Of a stretch of DNA of 64,000 nt, positions 6,826 to 25,328 are shown in pieces (position 1 is the first letter of the stretch; every line of letters begins with the position of its first letter). A program made the position numbers and the translations under genes. The notes below the pieces were generated by a model, which did not search any database, had not been told where the DNA came from, and worked only from the letters and a program-made list of their open reading frames with translations. The stretch is from Patescibacteria group bacterium (lineage in GTDB: Bacteria > Patescibacteriota > Patescibacteriia > JACRDY01), in contig JBAZFH010000002.1 in NCBI GenBank assembly GCA_041653535.1, positions 80,160 to 144,159 on the forward strand, given 5' to 3'.

Positions 6826-6858
6826 AAAACGTCCCGTTATAAACAGGACGTTTTTTAT
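6826..6858 (-). terminator. bidirectional hairpin terminator downstream of pnp
   Basis: aaaaacgtcccgttataaacaggacgtttttt. Confidence 0.55.
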
Positions 6859-6871
6859 TTAAGGGTAAAGT

Positions 6872-10317: not shown

Positions 10318-10535
10318 AAATCCTTGGTTTTGGCGCGCCGCCGAGTAGAGGGTTGCAAGTCCCGAAAACCCAGTCAGCCGTCTATTAATTAAGTAATAGA
10401 ACAATATCATAGGATACAGGTTCAGTCAAGACGGACGTCGGGAGGAGTATTATTAGCTATTTAGATTCGCAGACTTGCTATAGATACGAAAAACGCCATA
10501 CGGATTTTATCCGGTGGCGTTAAAATTGGTTGTGT

Positions 10536-10754
10536 TTACTTTTCGCCCGCTTGGTTCGTAGCCGCCATTTCTTCGATTTTAATCCTGATAAGATCGGGCA
10601 TCGGTTTGGACGGTATTTTCCCGGCGGCGGCTTGGGCTACTTGCCATTCGTCCGGGCTCATCACGTCGACCTGGTTGCTGTTATCGAGCAGAACGTCTTC
10701 CAGAAGATTTTTTAGTGGATGGTCGGGTTTCTGTCCTTTTTTTGGCATTGGCAC
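10536..10754 (-). CDS. small hypothetical protein
   Basis: 72-aa ORF only. Confidence 0.3.
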   Translation of the reverse strand: MPMPKKGQKPDHPLKNLLEDVLLDNSNQVDVMSPDEWQVAQAAAGKIPSKPMPDLIRIKIEEMAATNQAGEK

Positions 10755-10922
10755 CTCCTTTTGCGAGTATTGGCTATATTGTTAGATTATGTCGTTTTAT
10801 GGTCTTTGTCAATGTATTTTTTAAGTAGTATGTTGGGTTTTATCAAAGGTTGCCGTAATTGACGCTTTATTATTTTTTTGTTAGTTTCAAAATAACAGTT
10901 GTCAAAAACAAGGGAGGCAAAT

Positions 10923-11408
10923 ATGACGGATGAGGACACTCAGGCGATTCCGAGAGCGGATTGCTATGATCCGAAAAAATGGCGGGACTTAAAAAACCGC
11001 GCCAGAAAGCACGAAAATGCTAAAATTGATTGGGCGGCAATCGAACAGGCTGTAAAACAGACCGTGCCTGAGATAAAGAAATTAGTGGACGATTTTTTGG
11101 TCGCTAATCCAGGATGGAAGGTTTCTTTTTTCTGTTTAGATTTGCCGCCGCGGATTGAGATTTGTTTCGCCTTGGACTGCGAAGCGCGGCAAAAAAGAGA
11201 AACCGTTGTTAGTTCCCAGCTCGGCGTGATCGCCCGGAAAATTAGCCCGGACGAAACGGACATGGTAGCGACTTTTGTCGCCCAGATCATGACCAAAATT
11301 GGATTTAAGGTAAAAAGAATCAGTCACGTCAGTTTGACCGAGATTCTTGAATATCGGATCCATCCGGAGTACGGTAAATTTACCAAAACCCCGGTCGCGA
11401 CGACGTAG
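10923..11408 (+). CDS. hypothetical protein
   Basis: ORF with RBS aagggaggcaaatATG; terminator follows at 11429-11466. Confidence 0.45.
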   Translation: MTDEDTQAIPRADCYDPKKWRDLKNRARKHENAKIDWAAIEQAVKQTVPEIKKLVDDFLVANPGWKVSFFCLDLPPRIEICFALDCEARQKRETVVSSQLGVIARKISPDETDMVATFVAQIMTKIGFKVKRISHVSLTEILEYRIHPEYGKFTKTPVATT

Positions 11409-11428
11409 GTTGCCGTGAACATAAAATC

Positions 11429-11466
11429 AAAAACCGTTCGGAAACATTTCCGGACGGTTGTTTTTT
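11429..11466 (+). terminator. intrinsic terminator
   Basis: aaaccgttcggaaacatttccggacggttgtttttt. Confidence 0.6.
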
Positions 11467-11680
11467 AACCAGTCAAACTAACCTCTGTCGATAGATGCGA
11501 GCCGGTTTTTTCCCACTGTGCCTCTGGACGCCTGCCTGCCGGTAGGCAGGGGGCAGGCCGAGTTTTTAGAAATAAAGAAGTTAAAAACTTTTGGCGGTAA
11601 ACTTGCTAGCGCATGTTGTACTGGCATCTGCTGCTTCGCCTACGTCACTTTAAATAAAAAAATAAATTTACGAGCAGGGT

Positions 11681-12316
11681 TTAGGAGCGATCAATAAATT
11701 CTATCTCTTTAGCAATTTCGGCTTTCCATTTTTCCGGCGGGACGTCTTTGCACTTGTCTTTCATGTCGCGGATCAGTTGGAAAAATTTGTCTATCTTTTC
11801 GGCGGCAGCCTCTTTTTTTTCCAAACCGAAAAGGTAGTTGAGCGGTGAGTATAGATTGCCGAACTCTTCAAACTGTCTTGGTGCGGCGGTTTTACCTTTT
11901 ACTATGCCGAGGTTGTTCAGAATCCTTAGCATCTTGGGGCAAAGCTGAGTGGAACAAGTCGGCACGCGAAAAGAGTTTAGGGCACAGCCACTGCGGCGCA
12001 ATGCCGGACAAGGACCGTTACCGGGCAGGCGGCGTTTGCCTACTTCTAGCCAGTTGGAATTTTTTTCGGCCAGTTTTTTACTCCAGCCAGGACCGTTCAT
12101 GGCTTTCTGCGCCCGGTCGATAAAATTCCAATGATCCTGTACTTGGTTATCGAGCAGGCAGCAACACATTTCGTCGCGGTCGATAAAGCGTCCTTCTTTT
12201 ACCATTTCCAGACTTTTATCAAAGCAACGTTTGCATAAATCGTCAAAAACGCGAAAAAAACCGATCAGTTCTTTTTCGGCTTGGCGGTAGATGGTGAGTT
12301 TTTGGCGTTCGTTCAT
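11681..12316 (-). CDS. cysteine-rich hypothetical protein
   Basis: 211-aa ORF with multiple Cys clusters (MCCCLL, PCPALRRSGC, PTCSTQLCP). Confidence 0.45.
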   Translation of the reverse strand: MNERQKLTIYRQAEKELIGFFRVFDDLCKRCFDKSLEMVKEGRFIDRDEMCCCLLDNQVQDHWNFIDRAQKAMNGPGWSKKLAEKNSNWLEVGKRRLPGNGPCPALRRSGCALNSFRVPTCSTQLCPKMLRILNNLGIVKGKTAAPRQFEEFGNLYSPLNYLFGLEKKEAAAEKIDKFFQLIRDMKDKCKDVPPEKWKAEIAKEIEFIDRS

Positions 12317-12413: not shown

Positions 12414-13388
12414 ATGTCGAAAACTGGAAACAACCTAATCACCGATTTTCTCGAGTATCTGGAAATCGAGCGTGGACGATCGCAGGCGACTATCCGCAAC
12501 TATGATTTTTATCTGCGGCGTTTTTTTGATTGGGCGATTAAACGACAGAAGAGTTTTGATGTTAAAGATATTGATTCGCAGGCTATCAGACAGTATCGGT
12601 TGTTTCTTAACCGTGCCGTTGATGACAGAGGAAAGCAGCTTAAAAAAAGCACGCAAAATTATCACCTGATTGCTCTGCGGACGTTTCTCAAATTTCTTGC
12701 TAGAAATGATATCAAATCTTTGTCTCCGGAAAAAATCGAGCTGGCCAAACAGTCCGAACGCCAGATCGAATATTTGGAAGGGAGCGATCTTGGTAAATTT
12801 CTCGAAGCGCCGTTGCAAGTTGATGAGCAAAAAATCATCCAGCTGCGCGACAAATCAATGCTGGAAACGTTGTTTGCCACCGGGCTTCGTGTTTCCGAAT
12901 TAGTTAATCTTAGAAAAGATCAGGTGAATCTGAATAAAGACGAATTCACCGTGCGCGGTAAAGGAGATAAGCTGAGAATAGTTTTTCTTTCCAACCAGGC
13001 CAAATATTGGATTAAACAATATTTGGAAAATCGCAAAGATGCTTCGCCGTTTATGTTTGTCAGTCATGACAGGGCGAGGCAGTCCAGGTCTGGTGTTAGC
13101 GGCACCAAAAAAGATATTTTAGAAGAAGTTGAACATCTGACGCCACGGTCGGTGCAGCGGATAATCAAGAAATATGCTCAGATGGCGGGTATTACCAAAA
13201 AAATCACGCCGCACACTTTGCGTCATAGTTTTGCCACTGATTTATTGACTTCCGGCGCTGATATCCGTTCCGTGCAAAGTTTACTCGGACATTCATCGAT
13301 TACTACTACGCAAGTGTACACTCATATTGCCGATCAGCATCTCAAAGAGGTTTATAAAGCGTTTCATGGAAGGAAGATGAAGAAATGA
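12414..13388 (+). CDS. tyrosine site-specific recombinase (XerC/XerD family)
   Basis: core-binding N-domain; C-terminal RHSFATDLL...GHSSITTTQVYTHI with catalytic R-H-R-Y residues. Confidence 0.85.
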   Translation: MSKTGNNLITDFLEYLEIERGRSQATIRNYDFYLRRFFDWAIKRQKSFDVKDIDSQAIRQYRLFLNRAVDDRGKQLKKSTQNYHLIALRTFLKFLARNDIKSLSPEKIELAKQSERQIEYLEGSDLGKFLEAPLQVDEQKIIQLRDKSMLETLFATGLRVSELVNLRKDQVNLNKDEFTVRGKGDKLRIVFLSNQAKYWIKQYLENRKDASPFMFVSHDRARQSRSGVSGTKKDILEEVEHLTPRSVQRIIKKYAQMAGITKKITPHTLRHSFATDLLTSGADIRSVQSLLGHSSITTTQVYTHIADQHLKEVYKAFHGRKMKK

Positions 13389-13612: not shown

Positions 13613-13625
13613 TTGTTTCTTTTAT

Positions 13626-13697
13626 GCGCCCGTAGTTCAATGGATAGAACGAGAGCCTTCTAAGCTTTAAATCTAGGTTCGATTCCTAGCGGGCGCG
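13626..13697 (+). tRNA. tRNA-Arg(TCT)
   Basis: cloverleaf folded by eye: acceptor gcgcccg/cgggcgc, anticodon loop cttCTaa, T-loop ttcgatt. Confidence 0.8.
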
Positions 13698-13733
13698 GAG
13701 ATAATTAACAATTATTAATTAGTATTTGAATAT

Positions 13734-13809
13734 GGTGGCTATAGTGTAATGGTTAGCACTCGACTCTGTGGAAGTCGCGGTTCGGGTTCAAATCCCGATA
13801 GCCACCCCA
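13734..13809 (+). tRNA. tRNA-His(GTG) with G-1 and encoded CCA; attL of the integrated island
   Basis: acceptor gtggcta/tagccac, anticodon loop ctGTGga, T-loop ttcaaat; extra 5' G. Confidence 0.8.
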
Positions 13810-15393
13810 CAAGGCACTCTTCTTTACGGAAGAGTGTTTTGTTTTGGAAATTAAGCCAATTTGGACAGGTTCTAAGGTTTTTATTTCTTCCAACCCAGTT
13901 TTTACAATTTCAAAGGGTTTTTGCAGGTTCAAAGATAATTGACGGTCTTTCAAAATAAAACCAGAGCCTAAAGATATTAAGATAGTCTTTTTAGTATCTA
14001 AGTCGCCGTTTTTAAACCAATGACGCGCATAGCAAGAGAATTCAAAAGTCTTCTCAACGTTCTCCCTCCAGTTGTCAGCTCGGCTTTCATAATTTTTTAA
14101 TTGCTCAGCCATTTTTTCCCTCTCTTGCAAAAGTTTATTTTTCCGTTCAGTATATTCGGCATCATTTATTAGTTCACTTATTCTCATTGAAAGCAGGCTG
14201 TCTAATTTCTTTTCTACATTATCGTAAGCTTTTTGTTGGGTGGCTCGGATTATTTCTCTTTCCTTAATCTCACCATCATTAAGATTGTTGAGCCATTTTA
14301 TAGCCCAGTTTTTAAAATCTTCTGGTATTTGTATTTTTTCTAAATAAGCGTCAACTTGTTTTTCGAGCTCTTTTATCTCGAGGGTTTTTTGGCTACACTT
14401 CGGGCAAACATTTTTCCCCTTGCCACAGCGATAGTAGGTGTAATGGTGGGCGTTGCCGTTTTTTTGTTTCTTGAATTTTTCCTCCGCAGTTATCATAGAG
14501 CCACACTCTCCGCAGCGTATAAGCCCCGTAAACGCAAAATTATGCGTTTTAGGGCGTGACTTACCCTTTCTACCCAGTATCTCTTGTACGCGCCAAAAAT
14601 CATCTTCTGTGATGATTGTTTCATGTGCCCCCTTGTACCACTCGCCCCTATATTGGAATTTTCCAAAATAGAATGGGTCAGCCAAAATTCTATAGATAGT
14701 ACTCTCAGCCATTGGTCTGCCACCCTGTCTTTTAGTTTTAGGAGTTAAATATCCCCATTCATTATTCATCTTGTCTAACACTTGAGCGACAGTATATTTT
14801 TGGGTCAGAATCAACTCGAAAGCCTTTTTAATTAATGGCAACCTTGCGGTATCGGGTAGGAGTTTCTTGTCCCCTTGTTCGGAGAGTTTGTCTGGTAAAT
14901 ACCCTGGCTTAGCTCCAGGCAACCACCCCATTTTTACTTTTTGCATCAGCCCCCTAATTGTATTTCGGCGTAAGTCGATAATAAATTGGTTCGCTACCCC
15001 AAACTCCATATTCATAAGAAGCACATTGTCTCCTGGATAGTAGTCTCTCTCGGGAGTTTTAATGTGTTTAATAATACCTTGCTGCAAAAGCCAATTAATT
15101 CTGCCACCATCTATTGGGTTCCTAGCTAGGCGGTCTAATTTCCAACAGATTATACCCTGCGCCTCTCCGTTTTCTATTCTCGTAATCATCTCATTGAAAA
15201 TTGGGCGCCCTGGGCTTTTAGCCGACATGGATTCTTTGAATATATGTATGCTGTTTAAACTAAACTTTTTCGCCGCCTCCTCACTAGTTGAAAGCTGCGC
15301 GGGAATAGATAAGGCTTGCCTGTCTTCCGCGGCTTCAGACTTTCTAGCATAAACGAAGTACTTTATAGTGTCTAAATTTTCCAAATTAGTCAT
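13753..15393 (-). CDS. large serine recombinase (resolvase/invertase N-domain + recombinase domain + zinc ribbon)
   Basis: N-terminal YARKSEAAEDRQALSIPAQ with catalytic Ser; C-terminal CGECGSM...YYRCGKGKNVCPKC zinc ribbon; 3' end overlaps tRNA-His. Confidence 0.85.
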   Translation of the reverse strand: MTNLENLDTIKYFVYARKSEAAEDRQALSIPAQLSTSEEAAKKFSLNSIHIFKESMSAKSPGRPIFNEMITRIENGEAQGIICWKLDRLARNPIDGGRINWLLQQGIIKHIKTPERDYYPGDNVLLMNMEFGVANQFIIDLRRNTIRGLMQKVKMGWLPGAKPGYLPDKLSEQGDKKLLPDTARLPLIKKAFELILTQKYTVAQVLDKMNNEWGYLTPKTKRQGGRPMAESTIYRILADPFYFGKFQYRGEWYKGAHETIITEDDFWRVQEILGRKGKSRPKTHNFAFTGLIRCGECGSMITAEEKFKKQKNGNAHHYTYYRCGKGKNVCPKCSQKTLEIKELEKQVDAYLEKIQIPEDFKNWAIKWLNNLNDGEIKEREIIRATQQKAYDNVEKKLDSLLSMRISELINDAEYTERKNKLLQEREKMAEQLKNYESRADNWRENVEKTFEFSCYARHWFKNGDLDTKKTILISLGSGFILKDRQLSLNLQKPFEIVKTGLEEIKTLEPVQIGLISKTKHSSVKKSALWGGYRDLNPNRDFHRVEC

Positions 15394-15401
15394 ATTTGCC
15401 T

Positions 15402-15614
15402 CTATTTTGTCGTTTCGCCTTCTTTGCCCTCTTTATCTTCCTTGGGGTTTGTTAGTCGGTTGTTTCCGCAAAATTGGCAACCTTTCCGATAGAAAGGCAG
15501 TATAAAAATCCAAAGTCCGCCGGTGACCAATACGGCGATAAATGTGCCGAAAGTAAAATGCCTTTTTGAGGTGACGTTCCTTTTACAAAGAACGCAATAG
15601 CCGAATCTTCGCAT
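15402..15614 (-). CDS. small membrane protein with CxxC pairs
   Basis: 70-aa ORF: CVLC...CQFCGNN plus a TM helix. Confidence 0.3.
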   Translation of the reverse strand: MRRFGYCVLCKRNVTSKRHFTFGTFIAVLVTGGLWIFILPFYRKGCQFCGNNRLTNPKEDKEGKEGETTK

Positions 15615-15869
15615 AAATGTCTATTTATTAATTAATTTTATAGCCATACTACTAAAACTGCTCGAAACTAGATAAAGCTACTAAGATTTATTCAAAATTA
15701 CCTCGTTTTGTAGTTTGACAACTAAAAAGCCCCCACCCATCGGTTTTTACGAACTTGCGTTCGTATGTGCGTCAACACTAGCCGAGGATGAGGGCATCCT
15801 AAGTGTTGACGCACAAAGTTGTATTGATATTCTACCGCTGTTTTAGGCATAAATCAATACTTTCGTGCT

Positions 15870-16217
15870 TTATTTGTCGAATAATGAACGCCATTCCTCT
15901 TGTGTTCGTGGGCGCATGCTTTTGAGTCCATATAATCTTTTTTCAGAATCCTCGATGTTTTTGGATATTGCCTTTTTGTGCTCTGTGAGAGCTTTAATTT
16001 GGTTAGGGTTCATGGAGTATAGCGAGCTACCCTGTTTATCAATCAGTTCTTGTTCATATTTTGTTATTCTGCGCAGGTTCCAAAAATCTAAGGCGATATC
16101 TTCCACCAATTCGATTTCTAGTTCGGTGACTGGTTTTAGTATCAGCCTCATCCTCTCTTTCAATTTAGTAAGTTCCTCAAGATTATCATTGTTAGTTAAG
16201 GAATTTTCATTTTCCAT
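15870..16217 (-). CDS. hypothetical helical protein (island cargo)
   Basis: ORF; start overlaps the stop of an upstream 48-aa ORF. Confidence 0.35.
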   Translation of the reverse strand: MENENSLTNNDNLEELTKLKERMRLILKPVTELEIELVEDIALDFWNLRRITKYEQELIDKQGSSLYSMNPNQIKALTEHKKAISKNIEDSEKRLYGLKSMRPRTQEEWRSLFDK

Positions 16218-16357
16218 ACTTTTTGTAGTTATTAATTATTTTATCTAAAAAACCAGCAATGGTTTTGGTGTCTCTGTTATCGTCCAGATAATCCCTTTGT
16301 TTTGGGTCAATACGCACCAGGGCTTTAAATCTCGTTTTTCTTTTAGTTGATGTCATA
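16211..16357 (-). CDS. 48-aa ORF, possibly a ribbon-helix-helix DNA-binding protein (antitoxin-like)
   Basis: MTSTKRKTRFKALVRIDPKQRDYLDD: basic beta-strand then helix; ATGGAAAATGA stop/start overlap with the downstream gene. Confidence 0.25.
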
Positions 16358-16671
16358 AGTATACTTAATAGCTCCCTCTGGCTCTCCTGCCCGAATAGAC
16401 ACTTGTTCGCCTGGTTTTTAGATGGGACTGCCCGAGAATCTCGTCTCGGTCAAAGCAGTTTTTATCATTCGGTGTAGGTGTCGCCGTCGGTCGCTATCTT
16501 AATTCAGTTAATTGATAATTGAATTAAGATAAAGACCATTATTTTTTGATTGGCTTGTATATAGTTTTAAATAGATTCAAAAGGTTTGTAGCTTGTTTGG
16601 CGGCTTCAGCGCTACTAATTTCTATCCCGCAGCTATCCTTATATATTTGTTGAAATTCTTTTATAGCCGTT

Positions 16672-16923
16672 TCAGTCAGCATAAACTCTGCTTTTTAACT
16701 CTTTAAGAGTATTGAAATAAATTAGCGGGTCGACGGTTAGTCCATGAGCCCAAAATAATTGTATTAGTTGGTCTAAATACTCGTCTCGTCTTATAAGGAA
16801 TTTTATTTTTTGTGGGTTTTCTTTGTCTGTTGCTTCTACGCAATATCCGAGGCAACCGAGCGTCGCACATAAGGAAAGGTCAGAGGTCTTAAAATAATCA
16901 TTTTCATTTAATTTTTGGGTCAT
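16672..16923 (-). CDS. hypothetical protein
   Basis: 83-aa ORF. Confidence 0.3.
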   Translation of the reverse strand: MTQKLNENDYFKTSDLSLCATLGCLGYCVEATDKENPQKIKFLIRRDEYLDQLIQLFWAHGLTVDPLIYFNTLKELKSRVYAD

Positions 16924-17065
16924 ATAATTTTCATTAATTTTGTTTTTATTATGACAAAACCACCTATCCGGTGTTGAAAAGGTGGTTTTTATTAAACAAA
17001 AAATAGCCTTAATTTGGCTATTATTTATTTAGCTTTCTACGTTTTAGGTAAAAAGATTACCACTT

Positions 17066-17815
17066 TTACTTTTTTGTTTTTTTATTTTCAACCCAAACCT
17101 TCCTGCCTTTTACGTGGAAAGAGAATCTTTTATTAAGACCGTTTCTTTTTAATGTCCTTTGTATTTCCTTGATGGTGGTTTTTATTTTTTCAATTTTTTG
17201 CCATTCATTATAGTCGTCGGTCAGTAATCCGTTTTTTTGGTCTTTTGGCTCTTGAATTATATTAATTATCTCATTCGTAGAAGTGGCTAAGCCAAAATAG
17301 TCCCAGAGACGTTTTATTAGCCTACCTTGCCTAGTGTTATATTTGGCGACTTTTATATTCCTACTGTCAATATTTAAATAACAAAATTTAATATTCCCTT
17401 CTTTTTTGATAGAAACTTTACTGGTAGTTTTATCATTAGATGGGTATTTTAAATTTTTTATTTGTAAAGAATTTTGATAGGCGGTAGCTTTTGTTTTGTA
17501 TGATTTCTTAAAATTTTTAAATTCATTTTTAAATTTTTGTTCGTTAGTAGAAAATTCGAAATAACCATTAATATCTTCTTCAAGTGGGTATTTAATATTT
17601 TTTATTACCCCCTTCTTCTGCAATATTTGAAAAGCCCAAATTCTTCCTTTGATAAGTTCGGTTAGTTCTACACCCTTTATCCCTTTATTGTATTTATTTG
17701 CTACCCACCCGCCTAGCAATGGTATTTTAATTTTATTTTTCTCGGATACAAAGAAGCTCCTTATTTCTTGCAAGGCATTCCAGACTCTCTCTGTTTCCTT
17801 TCTATCTAAATACAT
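17066..17815 (-). CDS. lysine-rich hypothetical protein (island cargo)
   Basis: 249-aa ORF, no recognised domain. Confidence 0.4.
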   Translation of the reverse strand: MYLDRKETERVWNALQEIRSFFVSEKNKIKIPLLGGWVANKYNKGIKGVELTELIKGRIWAFQILQKKGVIKNIKYPLEEDINGYFEFSTNEQKFKNEFKNFKKSYKTKATAYQNSLQIKNLKYPSNDKTTSKVSIKKEGNIKFCYLNIDSRNIKVAKYNTRQGRLIKRLWDYFGLATSTNEIINIIQEPKDQKNGLLTDDYNEWQKIEKIKTTIKEIQRTLKRNGLNKRFSFHVKGRKVWVENKKTKK

Positions 17816-17974
17816 TAATCTTAATTTTAATCTTAATTTATATTCTTATTTTAGCACTTTTAGTTAGTTCTTTAAAGATGAAAATCAGCCAGAGTTTACC
17901 CGTTATGTATTTATTCAGAAAATGAGCTATAATTAAACTCGCAGTCTTGCTGGAGTATTAAAACATTAAAATGT

Positions 17975-19165
17975 ATGGAAAATCCTATTTTTATACCAAA
18001 ATTAATCCAAAACGAAGCTGGCTTTGTAGATAAAATAAAATTGCCAGCTATTTTAATGGACGCTAATATTGTTGCCTTTTCCCCTAAAATATCCGGCAAG
18101 ATAAGAGCGTCTGCAGATAGTTTTATTATCAATCCGGTCACTAATTTTTTTGTTGAAAATTCATTCATAGGCAAAAAAGCATTTAAGAAGTTGCCTACGG
18201 CTCCAGCTAAGCCCTATAGAGTTGAAGAGCTATTAACAAACGAAAAGTTAAGACGAGATGAATTGGTTTGGAAAAATATTGAGTATCAGATTAACAATAA
18301 AGCTAATATAATTATTATCCCTTACATTTATTCTGACAGCATTAATGATTCCAAATTCGGAATAAATTTAAGTATGATTTCTGACGCTTTAAAATTATTA
18401 AAAGTAAATAAAATAAATATCCCAGCGTATGCCATGATTAACATGGGCTCAAGTGTTTTGAATGATTTTACTGGACTAAATAACTTGATAGAAAGATACC
18501 GTGATGATTTTAATGACAAGATAAATGGTTTTTTTATGATGTTTGACGGCTTTGATTGTAGAAAAGCCGTGGATGATTCATTAATGGGTTTAGCCTATTT
18601 AACATTTTATTTGTCCGAGAATAAAAATACCTTCATTTTAAACCTGGGTGATTTTGGGGATGTATTATGTGCTATAGGTGCAAGGGGATATAGTAGCAGT
18701 TTGGGCGGTGGTGAAATATTTAATGTAGAAAAGCTATCCAAGGAAACTAAGAGTCGAGGCAGAAATCATAAAATTTTCTCTTACGTGCCCGAGGTGTTTG
18801 ATTATTTAAATAATGAATCATTAAGAAAAATTGGTTATAAATGTCCCTGCTCTATTTGCGATAATGGAATACCTAATGGCTGGAATAACGCAAAAGCCCA
18901 TTTTCTAAACAGAAAATTGGAGCGGATGGATAATTTAGCCAATTTAAATCGTGACCAGAGAATTGATTTTATTAAATTAAAAATTGAGCAAGCCGTTGAA
19001 CTAATATCTGTATATAATGCAAATTTTGCATTATCTATAAAGACGGATTTTTTGCTAAGATGGAAGAATGTTTTGGAAAAATCACGCCACTGGTCTTATA
19101 GCAAGCGAGAGACTGAAGCGGTGGATTTAGATAAAATAATTGAAGAAGCTAGAAAAAACAAATGA
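17975..19165 (+). CDS. tRNA-guanine transglycosylase (TGT)-like / DpdA-like protein
   Basis: NGFFMMFDGFDCRKAV resembles the TGT GIDMFDCV catalytic-Asp motif; C-terminal YKCPCSICDNG...AKAHF matches the TGT CxCxxC...H zinc site; N-terminal NPIFIPKL resembles TPxFMPV. Confidence 0.5.
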   Translation: MENPIFIPKLIQNEAGFVDKIKLPAILMDANIVAFSPKISGKIRASADSFIINPVTNFFVENSFIGKKAFKKLPTAPAKPYRVEELLTNEKLRRDELVWKNIEYQINNKANIIIIPYIYSDSINDSKFGINLSMISDALKLLKVNKINIPAYAMINMGSSVLNDFTGLNNLIERYRDDFNDKINGFFMMFDGFDCRKAVDDSLMGLAYLTFYLSENKNTFILNLGDFGDVLCAIGARGYSSSLGGGEIFNVEKLSKETKSRGRNHKIFSYVPEVFDYLNNESLRKIGYKCPCSICDNGIPNGWNNAKAHFLNRKLERMDNLANLNRDQRIDFIKLKIEQAVELISVYNANFALSIKTDFLLRWKNVLEKSRHWSYSKRETEAVDLDKIIEEARKNK

Positions 19166-19608
19166 GAATCGTGCCAGATACAAATTTATTAATTCAAGGA
19201 TTGCTTTTTAGAGGCACAGCTAGAAAAATAATCAACTTGGCTTATGAGAAAAAAGTTGATTTTTATGGTAGTGCGAATTCTTTTAATGAAATAAAAAGAG
19301 TAGTCTACTATTCTCGATTTAAAAAATACCTTGAGAATGAAATATTTTCCCCAGAAAAAATAATGATTTCTTTTAAGTCCCTCATCACCGTTGTTTCTAT
19401 AGACTCAAAATATAAAAATTCAAAATTTGTCGCCGATGATGCAGATGACGATGAGTTTATAAGAATAGCTAAGACAGTACAATCAAAATTTATTATTTCA
19501 AGCGATAAGCATTTAAAGAATATAAAAAAAGTCGACGATATAAGAATCGTCGAGCCAGAAATTTTTTTGAAGATATATCCAACTATATCAGGAAAAACAT
19601 TTTTTTAA
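19162..19608 (+). CDS. PIN-domain nuclease (VapC-like)
   Basis: MRIVPDTNLLI start, acidic DDADDDEF and SSDKHL motifs; start overlaps upstream stop (AAATGA). Confidence 0.65.
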   Translation: MRIVPDTNLLIQGLLFRGTARKIINLAYEKKVDFYGSANSFNEIKRVVYYSRFKKYLENEIFSPEKIMISFKSLITVVSIDSKYKNSKFVADDADDDEFIRIAKTVQSKFIISSDKHLKNIKKVDDIRIVEPEIFLKIYPTISGKTFF

Positions 19609-20259
19609 TTGTTGTTTTCCTAAGATAAACTCAGCGGCTAAATTAAACTTATGCCTATTTAAGGGTCGAGTGGCTTTTACTCGACTTATTTTTTTTGTAT
19701 GCTTATCGGGGTCAAATAAAATTAATCCTATATTATGTTTTTTAAGTAGCTCGCGGTCTACTAGATGACCTCTAGCAGCTGGCATGGCTAGGTATGCTTT
19801 ATTAGCAAAAGATTTATATCTATTGGCTTGCACAAATCCCTTTTTCCAATCTTTAAGTTTGGCTTCAATGGCAATGATTTCTTTAGCGATGGGCATCCAA
19901 CCATTTATCTTGAAATAGTATTTGTTATCAACTTTTTTTATAAAGCCATTATTTTCTAGGGTTTTTAAATATTTATATTTTAGAGTTGCCTTTGGAATAT
20001 TTAGATTTTTAGTTAGGCTGTTTAGGTCAACTTTTTTATTAGCGCCTAGCTCTGGCAAGTAATCAAAAATTTTAAAAAATTCCTCATTTTTTATTTTTTT
20101 GTATTGTTTGTTTTTGTTTCTGATGGCGCACTTATCTGGATTGACTCTAAATAGGACTAAATCTGCAACCCCATAACCAACGCCAACCTCCCTTTTGGTT
20201 AAGAAACCTTCCTTAATGAATTTTTCTTCCAAAAGTTTGACAAATTTTTTTTCTGTCAT
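19588..20259 (-). CDS. PD-(D/E)xK-fold nuclease with inserted winged-helix domain
   Basis: GYGVADLVLF ... IAIEAKLKDWKKGFVQANRY (D...ExK) with a wHTH segment between; converges on the PIN gene with ~20-nt overlap. Confidence 0.5.
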   Translation of the reverse strand: MTEKKFVKLLEEKFIKEGFLTKREVGVGYGVADLVLFRVNPDKCAIRNKNKQYKKIKNEEFFKIFDYLPELGANKKVDLNSLTKNLNIPKATLKYKYLKTLENNGFIKKVDNKYYFKINGWMPIAKEIIAIEAKLKDWKKGFVQANRYKSFANKAYLAMPAARGHLVDRELLKKHNIGLILFDPDKHTKKISRVKATRPLNRHKFNLAAEFILGKQQLKKCFS

Positions 20260-20357
20260 AATAAAATTATAGCATAGTTTAAAGTAATACTGAAATCCAC
20301 AGTCATCCGCCCCGTTAGGGTTTTTATTACCCCAGATTTTTTATTGGAATTTTGTGT

Positions 20358-20660
20358 TTAAGGTGCATCGACAGTATCTACGGTTTCTAAGTCGTCTAGA
20401 GCCCATTCCATATCATCGCAGCTAGACCATGAATAGTCTTGAGCATCTTCTATGTTAGAATTACACTCCTCTATGTTGTTGTTGGCTTGTTCTAGGGCAT
20501 CTTGATAACTATAAAGTTGGTTTTCACAATAGTAAAGTTGGCTGTCGTAATAGAGAAGTTGGTTTTTCATTTCCTCTGTAGCTTGATTATTTTTCCATAT
20601 CCAAATACCACAAACTAGTATAACTAAAAAGATTAAAATTTTTAGCTGTTTTACCCCCAT
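20358..20660 (-). CDS. membrane-anchored acidic small protein
   Basis: N-terminal TM helix, acidic Cys-containing C-terminus. Confidence 0.35.
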   Translation of the reverse strand: MGVKQLKILIFLVILVCGIWIWKNNQATEEMKNQLLYYDSQLYYCENQLYSYQDALEQANNNIEECNSNIEDAQDYSWSSCDDMEWALDDLETVDTVDAP

Positions 20661-20848
20661 ATATTAATCATTTTTTTTAATCAATTCTTTCCAAACGTAA
20701 ATAGTTAATATTACGAACGGTATTGGTGCTAACGCAATTGCATCACTGTTCGGCTTTTCAATTATAACCGACCAAGCGAAGTAAACCGATAGAATTAGAA
20801 TGATAATTCTGAGCCAACGAAAAAAATTTTTCATATAAATAAATTAAT

Positions 20849-21247
20849 TTATTTTTTCTTAGCTAGCCAATATCCACCAGCTCCAGCTCCGCCTAGTCCC
20901 AAAACCCAAGCCCAGGTATTATCTGATTTATCAGAAGAATCTTGTTCGGAGTTGATTTTAGCAATTGGTCGCTGATTAACTTCGAGTTTAGGGATTTCAT
21001 ATTCTGGTGCGGGTTCTGTTGTTCCTGTCCCATTAGCTCCGTAAGTGCTTTTTATGGGCTCTTCTGGCTGAGGCAAAGCTTTAGCTTGGTGGCAATGATA
21101 TTCGCCCGTGCCGAGACCCCAAGAGGAGCAATTTGTTCGACAGGTATGACAACCAGAAGCATCGGTTCTGCCAGGATGTGCTTGAGCAATCAGAACAAAG
21201 CTAAAAGAGGCAATAAATAGTGCTATAGATAGGGATACTTTGTACAT
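20849..21247 (-). CDS. secreted YHYH-like small protein with C-terminal hydrophobic anchor
   Basis: signal peptide; HPGRTDASGCH...GEYHCH resembles YHYH-domain proteins; C-terminal GLGGAGAGGYWLAKKK. Confidence 0.4.
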   Translation of the reverse strand: MYKVSLSIALFIASFSFVLIAQAHPGRTDASGCHTCRTNCSSWGLGTGEYHCHQAKALPQPEEPIKSTYGANGTGTTEPAPEYEIPKLEVNQRPIAKINSEQDSSDKSDNTWAWVLGLGGAGAGGYWLAKKK

Positions 21248-21499
21248 ACTTTAATCATATCGGAAAATGGTGATAATTTAAATAGGGCGCTTTTGTTTCA
21301 AGAAAATAAACCCGTAGAGTTTCAATTATCTCAATCAATCCGTTTCTAACTTCCTTTCGCCCGCCACCCCATAAAAAAGCATTTGCCTTTTGGCATAATG
21401 CTTTTTTATTTTGTAAGACTGAGGGGTTTGAACGGTCCGCCAGCTGGCGGATGCCCAGGGCGATGAACCCAGCTGCGGGGCTCTGCAGCTGGGGACGAG

Positions 21500-21517
21500 A
21501 TCCCGATAGCCACCCCA
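21500..21517 (+). repeat. attR: 18-nt direct repeat of the tRNA-His 3' end
   Basis: exact match to 13792-13809. Confidence 0.65.
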
Positions 21518-21882
21518 TGAAAAATTCTCACCGCTTCGGCGGTTGAGAGGTTTTTATTTTTTTAATTTTAAAAGGCTTGCCTTGCGGCAAGTCTTTATAA
21601 TTTTTAGTTATCAGGGGTTGACGTAGTGGTCAAACCTGTTATACTAACCGCACTTATGGTTCAGCTTGAGCCTAGGATAATAAATAAAGACAAAGGTATG
21701 ACACATTTTGATGATGAGAACACTGAAGCTACCGCTACCGAAGCTACCGAAGCTGAGGTTACTCCTGAAGCAACAGAAGAAGAAACTGTTGCTACCCCAG
21801 AAGAGACTGGCGACCAAGCCGTCTAACTCTCCAGCGATTATTCGCTAAAAAAAGTAGAGCCCTTAAATTGGGCCCTATTTTT

Positions 21883-23046
21883 TTATTTAATCGCGTTAGC
21901 CACTGTCGCAACTAATCCCGGATCAAAAGCGCTTGGTAATATATTGTCTTTTTTTGGCTCCACCACCCGGGCGGCGATATTTTCCGCAGCTTTGGTTAAC
22001 ATTTTATCGGTGATTTTGACCACTTTATTGTCCAGCGCTCCGCGAAAAATTCCCGGAAAAGCCAAGACATTGTTTATTTGGTTGGCAAAATCAGATCGTC
22101 CGGTGGCAACTATTAGCGCTCCAGCAGCTAGCGCCTCGTCGGGCATGATTTCCGGTGTGGGGTTAGCCATGGCAAAAATTATTGGGTCAGGATTCATCAA
22201 TTTAATCAGTTCCGGTTTTAAAGCTCCGGCGACGCTAACACCGATAAAAATATCCGCACCTTTTAGCGCGTCAGCTAGGCTACCTTTGATGCAAGCGGTG
22301 TCATCCTGATCGCGGAGACAAGCTAGGTTGGTGAGCTTGGCCAACTTTTCTTTAATCGGATTGAGACCGTCGCGGTTTTTATAAATAGCGCCTTGGCTGT
22401 CACAAACGACGATATTAATAAAACCATAAGCAAGTAAAAAATTAGTAATAGCCAGCCCGGCTGCTCCGGCACCACTGACAACTACGCGTACAGACTCTTT
22501 TTTTTGCCCTTTGACTTTTAACGCGTTAATTAACGCTGCTAGCACTACTACTGCTGTTCCCTGCTGATCATCGTGGATTACCGGAATCGACAGTTCGTTT
22601 CTCAGTCTTTCCAAAATTTCGAAGCATCTTGGCGAGGAAATGTCTTCGAGATTGATCCCGCCAAAAACCGGAGCGAGCTGTTTAACCGCTCTAATAATTT
22701 CTTCCGTATCTTGTGTGTCCAGGCAAATAGGAAAAGCGTCCACTCCGCCCAACTCTTTAAACAGTAATGCCTTCCCTTCCATTACCGGGATGGCGGCGAG
22801 CGGACCGAGGTTGCCCAGACCTAAAACGGCAGAACCGTCGGAAATAATCGCGATCGTATTTTTTTTGAGAGTGTATTCATAAGCCAGCTGCGGATCACGG
22901 GCGATCTCTTGGGAAACCTTGCCCACGCCAGGCGTGTATGCCAGCGACATGTCTTGTTTGGTTTTGAGTGGTACTTTACTGCGCACCTCCAGTTTGCCCT
23001 GATATTTTCTATGCAAATCTAGAGCCGCTTGTTCGATTGGGGTCAT
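21883..23046 (-). CDS. NAD(P)-dependent malic enzyme (short form)
   Basis: N-terminal malic-enzyme domain (LAYTPGVG...) and Rossmann NAD-binding domain (VVSGAGAAG). Confidence 0.9.
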   Translation of the reverse strand: MTPIEQAALDLHRKYQGKLEVRSKVPLKTKQDMSLAYTPGVGKVSQEIARDPQLAYEYTLKKNTIAIISDGSAVLGLGNLGPLAAIPVMEGKALLFKELGGVDAFPICLDTQDTEEIIRAVKQLAPVFGGINLEDISSPRCFEILERLRNELSIPVIHDDQQGTAVVVLAALINALKVKGQKKESVRVVVSGAGAAGLAITNFLLAYGFINIVVCDSQGAIYKNRDGLNPIKEKLAKLTNLACLRDQDDTACIKGSLADALKGADIFIGVSVAGALKPELIKLMNPDPIIFAMANPTPEIMPDEALAAGALIVATGRSDFANQINNVLAFPGIFRGALDNKVVKITDKMLTKAAENIAARVVEPKKDNILPSAFDPGLVATVANAIK

Positions 23047-23163
23047 ATTTTTTTAGATTAATTCAAGAAGTGATTAAATTTTAGTCTTTTTGGGTTGTCC
23101 TGTCTAGTAAACGGAGGTAAAAAGAAAAACCGCTCCGCTATGTAGTGGAACGGTTGTTTTGGT

Positions 23164-23580
23164 TTATTTGGCGAGCGCCTTCTGTCGTAAGAGGCCATTT
23201 TTGATCTCGTCGCCTTTACCGACGATAATTTTGACGAGACGTCGGTTGTCGAGATTGTAGACAACAATTAGGTGAGTGATGATCTGGGAAGGCTTCACGA
23301 GAGAGAAAATCAATTCCCAATCCTTTTCGTTGTTTTTCGGCGATGGGGCTTTTTCGATTTTGAGGTGAGGGTTTTGGAAATCAATGTCTTCGAACCATGC
23401 CATCCAGATCTCGTGGCGTTTATTGACGCACGGGTTTTCAATTTTTGCGAAGTCAGCAATACCTTCTTTTTCCTTGTATTTGGTGACGAAGATGTGTGTT
23501 CTGTACGCGTACCATTCTTTTCTCACCGCCCACAAAAAAGGAAAATCCCGCAACATTCGCACCATTCTCTTGTGTAACAT
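23164..23580 (-). CDS. hypothetical protein
   Basis: 138-aa ORF; weak resemblance of the C-terminus to RelE/ParE-type toxins, not supported further. Confidence 0.35.
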   Translation of the reverse strand: MLHKRMVRMLRDFPFLWAVRKEWYAYRTHIFVTKYKEKEGIADFAKIENPCVNKRHEIWMAWFEDIDFQNPHLKIEKAPSPKNNEKDWELIFSLVKPSQIITHLIVVYNLDNRRLVKIIVGKGDEIKNGLLRQKALAK

Positions 23581-23757
23581 TTTTCCTCCCCATCTTTAAG
23601 CTCGATCGAGCCGGGTCGGGATTGGAGGCAAAATTGCCTCGGTCTTTGTTTTTACCATAGTAGCCACTTTTTGTCAATATACTAGTGATTTTATGAAAAA
23701 GAAAAAGACCCTTGAAGTTATCGCTGGGTCTTGATATTAACTTGTTTTGTCGGAAGC

Positions 23758-24360
23758 CTAATTTGCCTCGGCTTCCTTGTTTTTTGACTCAATCGGTTCC
23801 GGAGAACATTCCGGAGGGTAATAACCGATCGTTTTATAAACGGTCGTTCGAAATTTTGCCAACATCATAATTTTTTCCAACCCCTGCGCTTTGATGACAA
23901 TGGCAAGGGAGACAGCGGCGATTTCCGCCGCAAACAAGATGGTGGCAGGAATGGCAACCATCCACCCTGTGGCGCCGGAGAAATATGTCGCCGCCGTAAG
24001 CATAACGGAAGCGGCAAAGAAAATAACCGACTGAATGAGTCCGATAATACTCATTTTTTTGTCGGCTGTTTTGTACGTTTCTCTTAGCCAAAGAGAACCT
24101 TCTTGGTAGTACATTTCAATCTGCGCCGGGTTTTCTTTGGCGGCAATGACAACGAGCATTTTTCGGCACGTTTGTGCGAGAACGTCATTGTCGTTTTTCG
24201 CCATACACAGTTGCAAAGCTCGTTCATAGTTCGCCGCTTCCACGAGCCTGGTTAGCCCATGGATAAACCCTCCGGCGCTATATTGTTTTTTTATTTGTCG
24301 TTTAGTTAAAACTACCCCAAGCACCATCAAAATAGTCATCGCCCAAAACAAATAAATCAT
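23758..24360 (-). CDS. membrane hypothetical protein
   Basis: 200-aa ORF with 3-4 TM helices. Confidence 0.45.
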   Translation of the reverse strand: MIYLFWAMTILMVLGVVLTKRQIKKQYSAGGFIHGLTRLVEAANYERALQLCMAKNDNDVLAQTCRKMLVVIAAKENPAQIEMYYQEGSLWLRETYKTADKKMSIIGLIQSVIFFAASVMLTAATYFSGATGWMVAIPATILFAAEIAAVSLAIVIKAQGLEKIMMLAKFRTTVYKTIGYYPPECSPEPIESKNKEAEAN

Positions 24361-24578
24361 TCTTTTTCCTCCTTTTTAGTAGGTGTTTTTGTCAAAGTAT
24401 CATTATACAATATCATAAGTTTTTATTTCTGTCAATCTTTTTAAGATTTATTATCTATTTTAGATAAATATTAATATCTATGTCTATTTAAAGTTTTTTG
24501 TTATTCTTTAGCTACTTGACAGCTATGTTAGAAATATATAACATAGGGGTATAAACTAATAATTAAACAAAAAGCATT

Positions 24579-25124
24579 ATGACCGCCAAACAATTTTTAT
24601 TTTTTAAATTAATAGTAGTGGTGATTCTGGCCGGCGTTGTCTCCTCTTTTATTACTGTCGGTAATTATGTAATACCGCTTTTGGTATTAATGACAGCAGG
24701 AGTGCTTCTTTATTTTATAAAAAAAAGAGTCAAGGATGTTATGGAAGACGAACGCGATTTTGAAATCGCCGGCAAAGCCGCCAGGTATGCGATGACAATT
24801 TTCAGCTTAGTTGGTGGAGTGGTTATTATTGTTATTTTTGCTTTACGCCATACCAATCCAGATTTAGAGCTGGTCGGCTCAGTGTTTGCTTATGCGGTTT
24901 GTTTTTTGTTGCTTTGTTACAGCCTGTTATTTAAATATTTTCAACAATCTCCCGGCAGCCGTCGACGATATGTTTTGTCGGTTGTAATAGTGGTCGTACT
25001 CTTTTGTTTGTTGGTTTTTGGTTTGCGCTTATTTTCCGGTGAAGATAATTGGATTTGCCAAGGCGGGCAATGGTTACAACACGGTCAACCCGACTTTCCC
25101 GCTCCCGCAGAATCTTGCAGATAA
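24579..25124 (+). CDS. DUF2178-like membrane protein
   Basis: 4 TM helices with a MEDERDFEIAGKA segment; immediately followed by an XRE regulator, a known pairing. Confidence 0.45.
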   Translation: MTAKQFLFFKLIVVVILAGVVSSFITVGNYVIPLLVLMTAGVLLYFIKKRVKDVMEDERDFEIAGKAARYAMTIFSLVGGVVIIVIFALRHTNPDLELVGSVFAYAVCFLLLCYSLLFKYFQQSPGSRRRYVLSVVIVVVLFCLLVFGLRLFSGEDNWICQGGQWLQHGQPDFPAPAESCR

Positions 25125-25133
25125 GCTTTGTTT

Positions 25134-25328
25134 ATGCAAAATAAAATAAAAGAGTTACGAAACAAGCTAGGGCTGACTCAGGAATATCTTGCCAGCAAAG
25201 TTGGCGTGCGGCGCGAGACCATAGTTTTTCTCGAACAGGGGAAATATAATCCTTCGCTACAACTAGCGCACAATATAGCCGTAGTGCTAGAGGTGAAGGT
25301 TGACGATTTATTTTTATTTGAAAAATAG
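25134..25328 (+). CDS. XRE-family helix-turn-helix transcriptional regulator
   Basis: [32 protein letters not shown] classic HTH_3. Confidence 0.8.

Follow-up and report, generated by a model that had tools for sequence, protein, structure and literature searches.

A compact integrative element in the tRNA-His gene of an uncultured Patescibacteria bacterium, probably inserted by its own large serine recombinase

A compact integrative element of about 7.56 kb (positions 13810 to 21371) has probably been inserted into the 3' end of the host tRNA-His gene by its own large serine recombinase (LSR), with the distal core at 21363-21371. A probability of roughly 0.65 is assigned to this reading. The host is an uncultured Patescibacteria (CPR) bacterium, and the window, i.e., the whole stretch of DNA that was analysed, comprises 64,000 nt (Patescibacteria group bacterium, GCA_041653535.1, contig JBAZFH010000002.1, positions 80,160-144,159, forward strand). 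The initial annotation of this DNA had proposed an LSR-borne island in the 3' end of tRNA-His. The proposal is borne out by the tRNA (ARAGORN, Rfam), by the domains of the recombinase and by the GC comparison that it had suggested, in which values of 0.28-0.33 at 17000-20300 stand against 0.42-0.47 in the flanks.

The tRNA-His Target and the Recombinase

The proximal end of the island and its surroundings contain the following features:
12414-13388, + strand: Xer-like tyrosine recombinase gene of the host, a context marker outside the island
13735-13809, + strand: intact tRNA-His(GTG) (ARAGORN; Rfam tRNA model, 63.8 bits)
13753-15393, - strand: LSR of 546 aa with the Pfam domains Resolvase (PF00239), Recombinase (PF07508) and Zn_ribbon_recom (PF13408)
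13792-13809, + strand: first copy of the 18-nt repeat ATCCCGATAGCCACCCCA, the 3' end of tRNA-His
13801-13809, + strand: attL core GCCACCCCA, consisting of the acceptor-stem end, discriminator C73 and CCA; the same 9-mer is found at 21363-21371

The tRNA-His gene is attL, with a 5' part from the host and a regenerated 3' end. The Islander signature is present: an intact tRNA and a displaced direct copy of its 3' fragment enclose foreign DNA with a tRNA-adjoining integrase gene. The exact 18-nt direct repeat that had been reported was found again, as ATCCCGATAGCCACCCCA occurs exactly twice in the window, in one orientation, and had no match in 100 shuffles.

The LSR has a resolvase catalytic domain with the Ser and Arg residues, followed by the Recombinase domain and then the zinc ribbon (E-values of 2.4e-14, 1e-11 and 1e-10, respectively), and it matches PHROG 95 "integrase" with an E-value of 5e-67. 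In an alignment of 28 LSR sequences (A1), R17, S19, R88 and R91 are invariant, and so are the zinc-ribbon residues C294, C297, C323 and C333. The best relatives with solved structures are the A118 integrase (E 3e-11) and SPbeta SprA, and the protein can be aligned to 4kis and 6dnw, structures of the A118 C-terminal domain. Serine integrases carry a coiled-coil insertion within the zinc ribbon; residues ~360-450 of the window LSR look charged and helical to the eye. According to Pfam, the sole recombinase between the repeats is this serine enzyme, and the island has no tyrosine recombinase. The LSR gene abuts and overlaps the tRNA, as had been noted earlier; the final 57 nt of its reading frame lie within tRNA-His. 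The tRNA gene contains the last 19 codons, of which the final 15 lie past the att core. In locus L036, the LSR reading frame ends ahead of the att core.

The Distal Junction

The distal end is made up of the following features:
21344-21371, + strand: conserved distal junction, the putative attR, with TTCTAACTTCCT (P-arm motif), ttcgccc and the core GCCACCCCA (21363-21371)
21372-21415, + strand: terminator hairpin with TAAAAAAG, hairpin and T-run, resembling the sequence directly after tRNA-His in LSR-free L144 and L179
21416-21499, + strand: GC-rich hairpin module (fold z-score -4.8)
21500-21517, + strand: the other copy of the 18-nt repeat, outermost in the module, an alternative attR that is rated less likely

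The tRNA 3' end recurs once more, in a shorter copy at 21363-21371 that the initial annotation had overlooked. This third copy lies 129 nt inside the 18-mer and has its own terminator behind it. Its setting is shared by the family. In at least 10 related islands, the distal end reads TTCTAAC-nTCnT-N12-discriminator-CCA plus a terminator, and the 12-nt spacing to discriminator N73 is constant among islands that target tRNAs His, Gly, Asn, Leu, Trp and Gln. A strict scan found this junction motif six times on the correct strand and never on the opposite one, compared with 0.2 times in shuffles. The T-loop heptamer of a tRNA occupies positions -19 to -13 from N73, and in 10 or more distal junctions TTCTAAC occupies -24 to -18; the T-loop-like heptamer is thus 5 nt more distant from the discriminator than the real T-loop. 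At the level of sequence, this offset matches the attP/attB geometry of serine integrases, for which a 5-bp shift of the ZD-recognition motif, nearer the crossover in attB than in attP, is established (PMC3783163). Six islands (L141, L054, L073, L050, L064 and L042) have the short-core junction alone, without a long repeat. The 18-mer at 21500-21517, which had been taken for attR, is probably not the attR of the LSR; the true distal junction probably lies at 21344-21371 and has a 9-nt core.

The identity blocks of all delineated related islands share only tRNA positions 72-74, which places the likely crossover at the discriminator or adjoining it. Dyad-symmetry scoring was non-discriminating, with a slight preference for a centre within the 18-mer. 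The P' arms of the family carry a quasi-symmetric GAGCGTAnAA at +15 to +24, and the P' arm of the window does not fit this consensus.

Integration would proceed by the binding of one LSR dimer to attB, centred on the discriminator base, with the T-loop, T-stem and acceptor 3' strand as the left half-site and the tRNA terminator as the right half-site. A second dimer would bind attP on the circular element, whose P arm would be TTCTAAC-TTCCT-ttcgc-CCGCCAC-C-CCA and whose P' arm would be the 3' end of the LSR gene. The zinc-ribbon domain may recognize the T-loop, and attP would be told from attB by its heptamer, 5 bp farther from the crossover than the T-loop of attB. Strand exchange at positions 72-74 would give an unchanged tRNA at attL and leave behind an attR composed of the P arm, the 9-nt core and the native terminator (21344-21415).

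The Terminator and GC-Rich Module beyond the Core

The 146 bp past the core (21372-21517) match the terminator and small GC-rich module that are found beside tRNA-His in LSR-free relatives. Their first part, 21372-21415, may be the native sequence downstream of tRNA-His (the B' arm). The module consists of an inverted T-arm-like GGGGTTTGAACGG, a TCCGCCAGCTGGCGGA hairpin and a CCCAGCTGC...GCAGCTGGG hairpin. The same architecture stands beside tRNA-His in LSR-free L143, L161, L168, L174, L183 and L219, and the hairpin motif occurs four times in the window, compared with 0.01 expected. LSR-free relatives also have tRNA-His 3'-end repeats of 14-20 nt, located 86-235 nt downstream of the tRNA. A second terminator (TGAAAAATTC...) follows 21517 and is similar to the native sequence downstream of tRNA-His in L143 and L219. 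The terminator, the module and the 18-nt tRNA fragment would predate the integration and be members of a small family of repeats in the host lineage.

Clean outer repeats of 17-30 nt are present in four islands (the window, L053, L037 and L140). The modules of the window and L053 have common motifs (the TCCGCCAnnTGGCGGAT hairpin and GGGACGAG) despite different tRNAs and hosts. These outer repeats and shared motifs would also suit a module that travels with the element.

A Clade of LSRs at tRNA and tmRNA Genes

As a family trait, the LSRs of a large clade, which is present in CPR and further uncultured phyla, adjoin tRNA or tmRNA genes. At 47 of 69 related loci, the LSR gene overlaps with its 3' end a tRNA or tmRNA on the other strand, and eight further related loci have a T-arm and acceptor fragment at the LSR 3' end; no such overlap was found for 31 distant phage LSRs. 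The overlapped targets are the tRNAs His, Asn, Gln, Gly, Trp, Ile, Leu, Lys, Ser and Ala, as well as tmRNA. The hosts belong to CPR/Patescibacteria, Omnitrophota, Margulisiibacteriota and Elusimicrobiota. This big clade has apparently not been described before, and its targeting of tRNA and tmRNA genes seemingly relies on recognition of the conserved T-loop.

A wider proposal, to which slightly less than even odds are given, can be made from these sequence patterns. The whole clade might be specialised on tRNA/tmRNA genes and use the near-universal T-loop as the recognition motif of the zinc ribbon, with a real T-loop in attB and a mimic 5 bp outward in attP. The bases around the discriminator alone would then choose the tRNA. 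Such enzymes would be retargetable and free of landing pads, and they could represent the main integration machinery of CPR; the GC-rich modules may be undescribed miniature elements that use the same sites.

Occupancy of the Site in Relatives

The order of the Xer-like gene, tRNA-Arg(tct) and tRNA-His recurs among 80 metagenome loci, with or without an LSR. Occupancy of the tRNA-His site varies, since only 4 of the 22 informative loci that keep this order carry an LSR. The comparison with empty sites that the initial annotation had called for therefore supports variable occupancy, but at the level of relatives rather than of strains: no strain-level empty site was found, nor an empty site or circular junction for the window genome. 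The nearest relatives have flanking proteins that are only 67-79% identical, and the synteny of the right flank is lost. In L140 and L141, which are syntenic hosts, the island cargo at the same site is different, which indicates recent turnover.

Cargo and Small Genes

The island carries the following genes besides the LSR:
15402-15614, - strand: 70-aa protein (ORF list) with CxxC...CxxC on both sides of a hydrophobic hairpin, from the gene directly upstream of the LSR
15870-16217, - strand: 115-aa protein of unassigned function, with weak homologues in LSR islands L050, L140, L051 and L068
16539-16682, - strand: 47-aa LSR partner
16672-16923, - strand: 83-aa DUF5659 protein (Pfam PF18903, E 9e-7), a frequent backbone gene
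17066-17815, - strand: 249-aa lysine-rich protein (ORF list), no family above threshold in Pfam, PHROG or NCBIfam
17975-19165, + strand: TGT-superfamily enzyme of 396 aa (DpdA/Cap10-like), a TIM barrel whose zinc site reads CxCxxC...H, cargo
19162-19608, + strand: PIN-domain nuclease (PF13470, E 3e-13; TIGR00305, 59 bits, over the cutoff), cargo
19588-20259, - strand: 223-aa protein, weakly suggestive of a winged helix (TrmB/CARF-associated wHTH), from gene three of the cargo module
20358-21247, - strand: three short proteins, membrane-bound or secreted, of 100 aa, 56 aa and 132 aa, the last with a YHYH domain

Of the 11 delineated islands, 10 encode a homologue of the 47-aa protein in the same orientation as the LSR. 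It has no Pfam or PHROG family and is a candidate recombination directionality factor (RDF) or regulator. DUF5659 has tblastn matches in 23 related loci, upstream of the LSR and co-oriented with it. The 70-aa protein has no family match in Pfam, PHROG or NCBIfam.

The 396-aa product has a TGT-type TIM barrel and a C-terminal CxCxxC...H zinc subdomain, but the sequence itself has no Pfam (TGT or other) or NCBIfam match at E <= 0.01. The TGT-like gene and the PIN gene overlap at the stop codon of the former, and the three-gene module (TGT-like, PIN and 223-aa proteins) is found again in islands L005 and L140. The enclosed genes had been described as small and unknown, defence-like or secreted. 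The TGT/DpdA/Cap10-type fold and the PIN domain give weak support to "defence-like"; the matches returned by PADLOC were all marginal, none of them to a defence effector. Secreted proteins are present: the 132-aa YHYH protein has a signal peptide and a C-terminal anchor (NF033223 YHYH_alt, 48.5 bits; homologues in L002, L048 and L053). No replication gene is recognisable in the island.

Alternative Explanations

The island might instead extend to 21499/21517 with the 18-mer as the true att core, which is considered unlikely. The inner pseudo-3'-end, terminator and module would then be a conserved part of the P arm, and the "scars" in LSR-free relatives would be leftovers of deletions from the tRNA 3' end to the inner pseudo-copy. 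Use of such an outer junction would mean a circular junction ...GGGGACGAG-ATCCCGATAGCCACCCCA-CAAGGC... and an empty site ...CCACCCCA-TGAAAAATTC.... The exactness of the 18-nt repeat speaks for this boundary, as do the repeats in L140, L053 and L037, which begin in the T-loop and have host terminators directly behind them, the ordered motifs common to the window and L053 modules, the best in-core dyad centre, which is the same T-stem position in the window and L140, and the native-like sequence after 21517. However, the P-arm motif with its fixed spacing sits at the inner junction, several islands have the inner junction alone, and modules are found without LSRs as well as off-island in the window genome. 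The longest repeat of L002 is a native host feature, because the empty site L154 has it too, and the long repeats came from a search that was biased towards long repeats.

The island may also be an immobilised relic of one LSR integration that lost excision, e.g., without a functional RDF, and is now vertically inherited. This is rather improbable, although the exact element is known from one genome only (Logan contig L001 is 100% identical), public contigs yielded no attP or attB junction, and the distal end of L002 appears scrambled. The LSR reading frame is unbroken and retains every catalytic and zinc residue, both junctions are intact, the conserved 47-aa partner gene is present, and the cargo turnover between L140 and L141 argues against a frozen site; the element may thus still be mobile. 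Insertion by a tyrosine recombinase, either the adjacent Xer-like gene or a lost integrase, with the LSR as cargo or resolvase, is very hard to credit. tRNA 3' ends are the classical target of tyrosine integrases (PMC4383910), the Xer-like gene is 350 bp upstream of tRNA-His, and long repeats from T-loop to 3' end look like tyrosine-integrase cores. Nevertheless, the Xer-like gene, whose homologue with a Phage_integrase domain stands beside tRNA-Arg/tRNA-His in L140 and L141, occurs in all relatives regardless of the island and lies outside the repeats. The island itself lacks such an enzyme, and the overlap of the LSR gene with a wide range of tRNAs, seen at 47 of 69 loci, indicates that the LSR is not mere cargo.

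Relation to Known Systems

The window LSR shares its three-domain architecture and catalytic residues with A118/LI, SPbeta SprA, phiC31, Bxb1, SCCmec Ccr and XisF, and as in phage and island serine integrases, its att sites are short and the recognition motif is shifted by 5 bp between attP and attB. It is very distant from them, with a best PDB E-value of 3e-11 and NCBIfam scores far under the XisF and Ccr cutoffs. Known LSRs typically have protein-coding targets, whereas this clade has tRNA or tmRNA targets and an attP that overlaps its own 3' end. In the literature searched, the use of tRNA targets by serine integrases counts as unreported or not proven; a 2020 survey listed 14 of 297 computational cases, called unreported and in need of proof (PMC7192596). 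The earlier remark that the pairing of a serine enzyme with a tRNA is unusual agrees with this literature, but the case is no one-off, as a large clade is placed likewise. Serine integrases are the preferred enzymes for large DNA insertion, and each requires its own rare attB. Related LSRs are found on tRNA/tmRNA genes by the hundred, with an att architecture that agrees with the structural rule known for the family. If the proposal is true, target choice would be simply explained by the T-loop and discriminator-proximal bases, integrases would be available whose sites are already present in most organisms, and Patescibacteria, currently without both, would gain genetic tools and a mobilome model.

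Islander-type islands likewise integrate into tRNA 3' ends and regenerate the gene, with an integrase abutting the tRNA and a displaced 3' fragment; they and the LSR clade frequently switch targets among tRNAs and use tmRNA too. Their enzymes are tyrosine recombinases, whereas the window enzyme is a serine recombinase with an identity block of 5-9 nt at the extreme 3' end, for which arm-type sites are not expected. The known exception cited in PMC7192596 is phiRSM of Ralstonia filamentous phages, which target tRNA-Ser with a serine-family recombinase at the tRNA 3' end. Its Int is small and resolvase-like, without Recombinase and zinc-ribbon domains, in contrast to the 546-aa window LSR with all three domains. 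In SSV1-type archaeal integrases, att also lies within the integrase reading frame, so that integration alters the protein. Their genes are split and encode tyrosine enzymes, whereas the window integrase gene is not split and only a short, non-conserved C-terminal tail is swapped, the last 15 codons being replaced by tRNA-encoded ones. Prochlorococcus tycheposons are also compact cargo elements at tRNA genes, but they belong to another phylum, often have replication genes and are overwhelmingly based on tyrosine recombinases; 27 of 937 carry an LSR instead.

Island and Integrase

The initial annotation described an integrative island in the 3′ end of the tRNA-His gene, bounded by an exact 18-nt repeat and carrying a serine recombinase that overlaps the tRNA. 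The genes at this end are as follows:

13625–13698, tRNA-Arg(tct) (ARAGORN)
13735–13809, tRNA-His(gtg) (ARAGORN, in agreement with Rfam)
13753–15393, minus strand, large serine recombinase (LSR) of 546 aa with Resolvase, Recombinase and Zn_ribbon_recom domains

The repeat and the overlapping recombinase were confirmed. The 18-mer ATCCCGATAGCCACCCCA occurs in two exact copies in the window (13792–13809 and 21500–21517, same orientation) and had no matches in 100 shuffles, and the tRNA-His gene contains the final 57 nt of the LSR ORF. The enzyme matches PHROG 95 (“integrase”) with an E value of 5e-67, and its closest solved structures are those of A118 integrase and SPbeta SprA. The GC content, which was also to be compared, is 0.28–0.33 in the middle of the interval versus 0.42–0.47 outside. 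Both the island and its enzyme are genuine, and the reading as an integrative island was right in substance, with the exception of the position of attR and the supposed rarity of such an enzyme. Judging from its sequence, the window's own copy may be mobile.

Window positions 13637–25393 match the Logan contig L001 with 100% identity, and the exact-protein look-up recovered this same genome alone (L001, 100% identical). For the flanking proteins, even the closest relatives are just 67–79% identical, so a strain-level comparison is impossible.

Targeting of tRNA and tmRNA Genes across the Recombinase Clade

More than 3000 proteins are homologous to the LSR at E < 1e-20, and the best of them, mainly from Patescibacteria MAGs, are 55–59% identical. 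Eighty related LSR loci were taken from GTDB species genomes and scanned for tRNAs; 69 were informative, that is, DNA was present past the LSR stop. In 47 of these 69 loci, the LSR gene runs tail to tail with an opposite-strand tRNA or tmRNA, the two 3′ ends overlapping or abutting, and the targets are Asn, His, Gln, Gly, Trp, Ile, Leu, Lys, Ser, Ala and one tmRNA. For 31 distant control LSRs from IMG/VR phages (22–27% identity), no tRNA lies within 250 nt of the stop. The family consensus C-terminus, W-x4-D-S-N, is the reverse complement of CCA...GGTTCGAATCC in a fixed frame. In a rough NJ tree, sub-clades have a common target, and switching between targets is frequent. The view that tRNA targeting is uncommon for an enzyme of this kind should therefore give way to membership in a large tRNA/tmRNA-targeting LSR clade.

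Mageeney et al. (2020) reported the use of t(m)RNA genes by 14 of 297 S-Ints, compared with 44.5% of Y-Ints (PMC7192596). The known serine exception at tRNA genes, phiRSM, differs in having a small, resolvase-like enzyme (PMC7192596), and among Tycheposons an LSR is found in 27 of 937 elements. Literature searches turned up neither a tRNA-dedicated LSR clade nor CPR integrative elements of this kind; large island databases may already hold such islands, uncommented.

Eight more loci have a T-arm and acceptor-strand fragment at the LSR 3′ end with no full tRNA call, and may represent intron-containing tRNA-Asn genes or unintegrated forms. At L011, L012, L020, L038, L045, L066, L078 and L080, the LSR 3′ end is followed by a T-arm and a ...GGAGC(CA) acceptor strand typical of tRNA-Asn without an ARAGORN call, and the same uncalled sequence is found at six contig-end loci. 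These may be tRNA-Asn genes split by group I introns, which were recently reported to interrupt Patescibacteria tRNA-Asn genes (PMC13011429). At locus L070, the LSR (10001–11572) overlaps a tmRNA gene (11561–11940) at the 3′ end by 12 nt, consistent with an enzyme that recognizes the T-arm and acceptor end, not one particular tRNA. Many contigs (L003, L005, L015, L019, L022, L043, L067 and others) end within about 100 nt of a clade LSR stop. Assemblies seem to have broken at the tRNA/att site, which would be expected if the sampled populations contained both occupied and empty alleles, or tRNA ends in repeated copies. A second, very distant LSR lineage (24–27% identical to the window LSR) overlaps the tRNA-His 3′ end in metagenome loci L159 (2419–3972) and L197 (2163–3776), which share the window's syntenic host context, and tRNA targeting may extend past the clade studied.

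The Distal Junction

The tRNA end has a third copy, GCCACCCCA, at 21363–21371, inward of the distal 18-mer copy, with its own terminator directly after it. Comparison of the islands gave a conserved distal junction, TTCTAAC-nTCnT-N12-N73-CCA (N73 being the discriminator base) followed by a terminator, which is present at the following places:

Window, 21344–21371
L053 (target Gly)
L141, L050 and L140 (His)
L054 and L037 (Asn)
L073 (Leu)
L064 (Trp)
L042 (Gln)
L048

In every case, 12 nt separate the 12-mer from the discriminator, and identity to the target tRNA is confined to the last 5–9 nt. Under strict criteria (no more than one mismatch in the heptamer, spacing fixed, positions 69–73 matched exactly), a scan returned six matches on the correct strand and none on the other, versus 0.2 in shuffles. 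The blocks of identity coincide across all islands only at tRNA positions 72–74, so the crossover was placed at the discriminator. The T-loop-like heptamer is located at −24 to −18 from N73 versus −19 to −13 for the real T-loop. Such a shift of 5 nt is what the published attP/attB rule for serine integrases prescribes: their ZD motif lies at bp 16–24 in attP and bp 11–19 in attB (PMC3783163). The LSR is proposed to read the T-loop. On the island side, the P′ arms of most family members carry a partly symmetric GAGCGTAnAA at +15 to +24. Islands bounded by the inner junction measure 4.2–10.6 kb, and that of the window 7.56 kb. Given this family-conserved junction at 21344–21371, the initial assignment of attR to the 18-mer was probably off by 146 bp. 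Dyad-symmetry scores did not separate the inner from the outer attR.

Recombination at the inner junction would yield CTTCCTTTCGCCCGCCACCCCACAAGGCACTCTTC as attP and CCCGATAGCCACCCCATAAAAAAGCATTTGCC as attB; at the outer junction, these would be GGGGACGAGATCCCGATAGCCACCCCACAAGGCACTC and CCCGATAGCCACCCCATGAAAAATTCTCACC. A search of metagenome and viral contigs for attL, attR, attB and attP junctions with one degenerate pattern found none. Because the crossover falls inside the LSR ORF, the C-terminal tail differs between the two forms (13753–13800, 21255–21371). The integrated LSR is predicted to end in ...WGG-YRDLNPNRDFHRVEC (546 aa), and that of a circle joined at the inner junction in ...WGG-GRKEVRNGLIEIIETLRVYFLETKAPYLNYHHFPI (565 aa). 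The tail is probably unimportant, since relatives do not conserve it.

A 22-nt repeat in locus L002 was ruled out as an att core, since the LSR-free L154 has it after tRNA-His as well. In L036, a 2.2-Mb Latescibacterota contig with no tRNA within 21 kb, a P-arm motif, a tRNA-Asn-like core and a terminator directly adjoin the LSR 3′ end (11614–11696) in an attP-like arrangement. Its presence inside a chromosome reflects either a tandem-array junction or an element borne on something larger.

The Repeat Module outside the Junction

The 146 bp beyond the inner junction, and the related hairpins away from the island, comprise the following:

21372–21517, terminator, inverted T-arm-like sequence, GC-rich hairpins including TCCGCCAGCTGGCGGA, and the 18-nt tRNA fragment
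21518 onwards, second terminator
6590–6700, 43040–43100 and 48160–48185, hairpin-bearing sites

This module is read as a host repeat that predates integration, with the 18-mer as its outer end, because its architecture recurs in relatives without the LSR and its hairpins recur elsewhere in the window. The same arrangement follows an intact tRNA-His in six LSR-free relatives (L143, L161, L168, L174, L183 and L219), in which repeats of 14–20 nt lie 86–235 nt downstream of the tRNA. The hairpin TCCGCC-N2-6-GGCGGA has four copies in the window versus 0.01 expected. The copy near 6.6 kb forms a palindromic unit of about 100 nt (6597–6692; fold z-score −3.6) bounded by inverted copies of GCCACCCCA, and the copy near 43 kb adjoins a 15-nt partial tRNA-Cys copy (43072–43099). 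Such units look like a genome-wide small repeat family tied to tRNA fragments. That the module instead travels with the element is less likely but keeps roughly one chance in four by our estimate, since the modules of the window and L053 have ordered motifs in common and four islands have clean outer repeats of 17–30 nt.

An Rfam search of the distal module, the relatives' scars and the 6.6-kb copy returned no family. In the LSR-free relatives, L154 included, tRNA-His and its terminator are directly followed by a GC-rich hairpin segment of 50–200 nt. The segment starts with an inverted T-arm copy and ends with a direct 14–20-nt copy of the tRNA 3′ end and a second terminator, and MFE folds pair the inverted copy with the direct one. 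These segments may be scars left by older elements, or they may be miniature non-autonomous elements.

Occupancy of the Site in Relatives

The host order of a Xer-like gene, tRNA-Arg(tct), sometimes tRNA-Arg(ccg), and tRNA-His is common to the window, L140 and L141; the latter two carry related LSR islands with different cargo. Among 80 metagenome loci retrieved with the Xer-like protein as the query, 22 have this order and at least 900 nt past tRNA-His. An LSR overlaps the tRNA in just four of the 22: L147 and L152 (LSR 57–59% identical), and L159 and L197 (24–27%). The variable occupancy sought was thus seen at the lineage level only. The right flank (malic enzyme) is syntenic in no relative, its nearest relatives being 67–68% identical and not syntenic, and this genome's exact empty site therefore cannot be demonstrated.

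Gene Content

No phage structural, replication or conjugation genes were found in the island. The element is not called a prophage: structural genes are missing, only the integrase and the PIN protein have PHROG matches, and IMG/VR holds just two or three close relatives. Annotation as a defense system was likewise rejected, as PADLOC gave marginal wHTH matches only.

The backbone consists of the LSR, found in 11 of 11 delineated islands, and a protein of 47–92 aa, found in 10 of 11. The window copy of the latter (16539–16682; 47 aa) belongs to no known family and is the best candidate for a recombination directionality factor (RDF) or regulator. DUF5659, also counted as backbone, occurs in 23 of the 80 genome loci. 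The window's island also encodes three small proteins, membrane-bound or secreted, of which one has a YHYH domain, and a cargo module of three genes that is found in three LSR islands:

Window, 17975–20259
L140, 4345–6653
L005, ~4860–7120

In this module, the gene for a TGT/DpdA/Cap10-fold enzyme overlaps, and is translationally coupled to, that of a PIN_3 nuclease, and a gene for a 223-aa wHTH-like protein is convergent. The enzyme family comprises only 18 known clusters and has no Pfam model. The three genes may form a novel nucleic-acid base-exchange, defense or addiction module.
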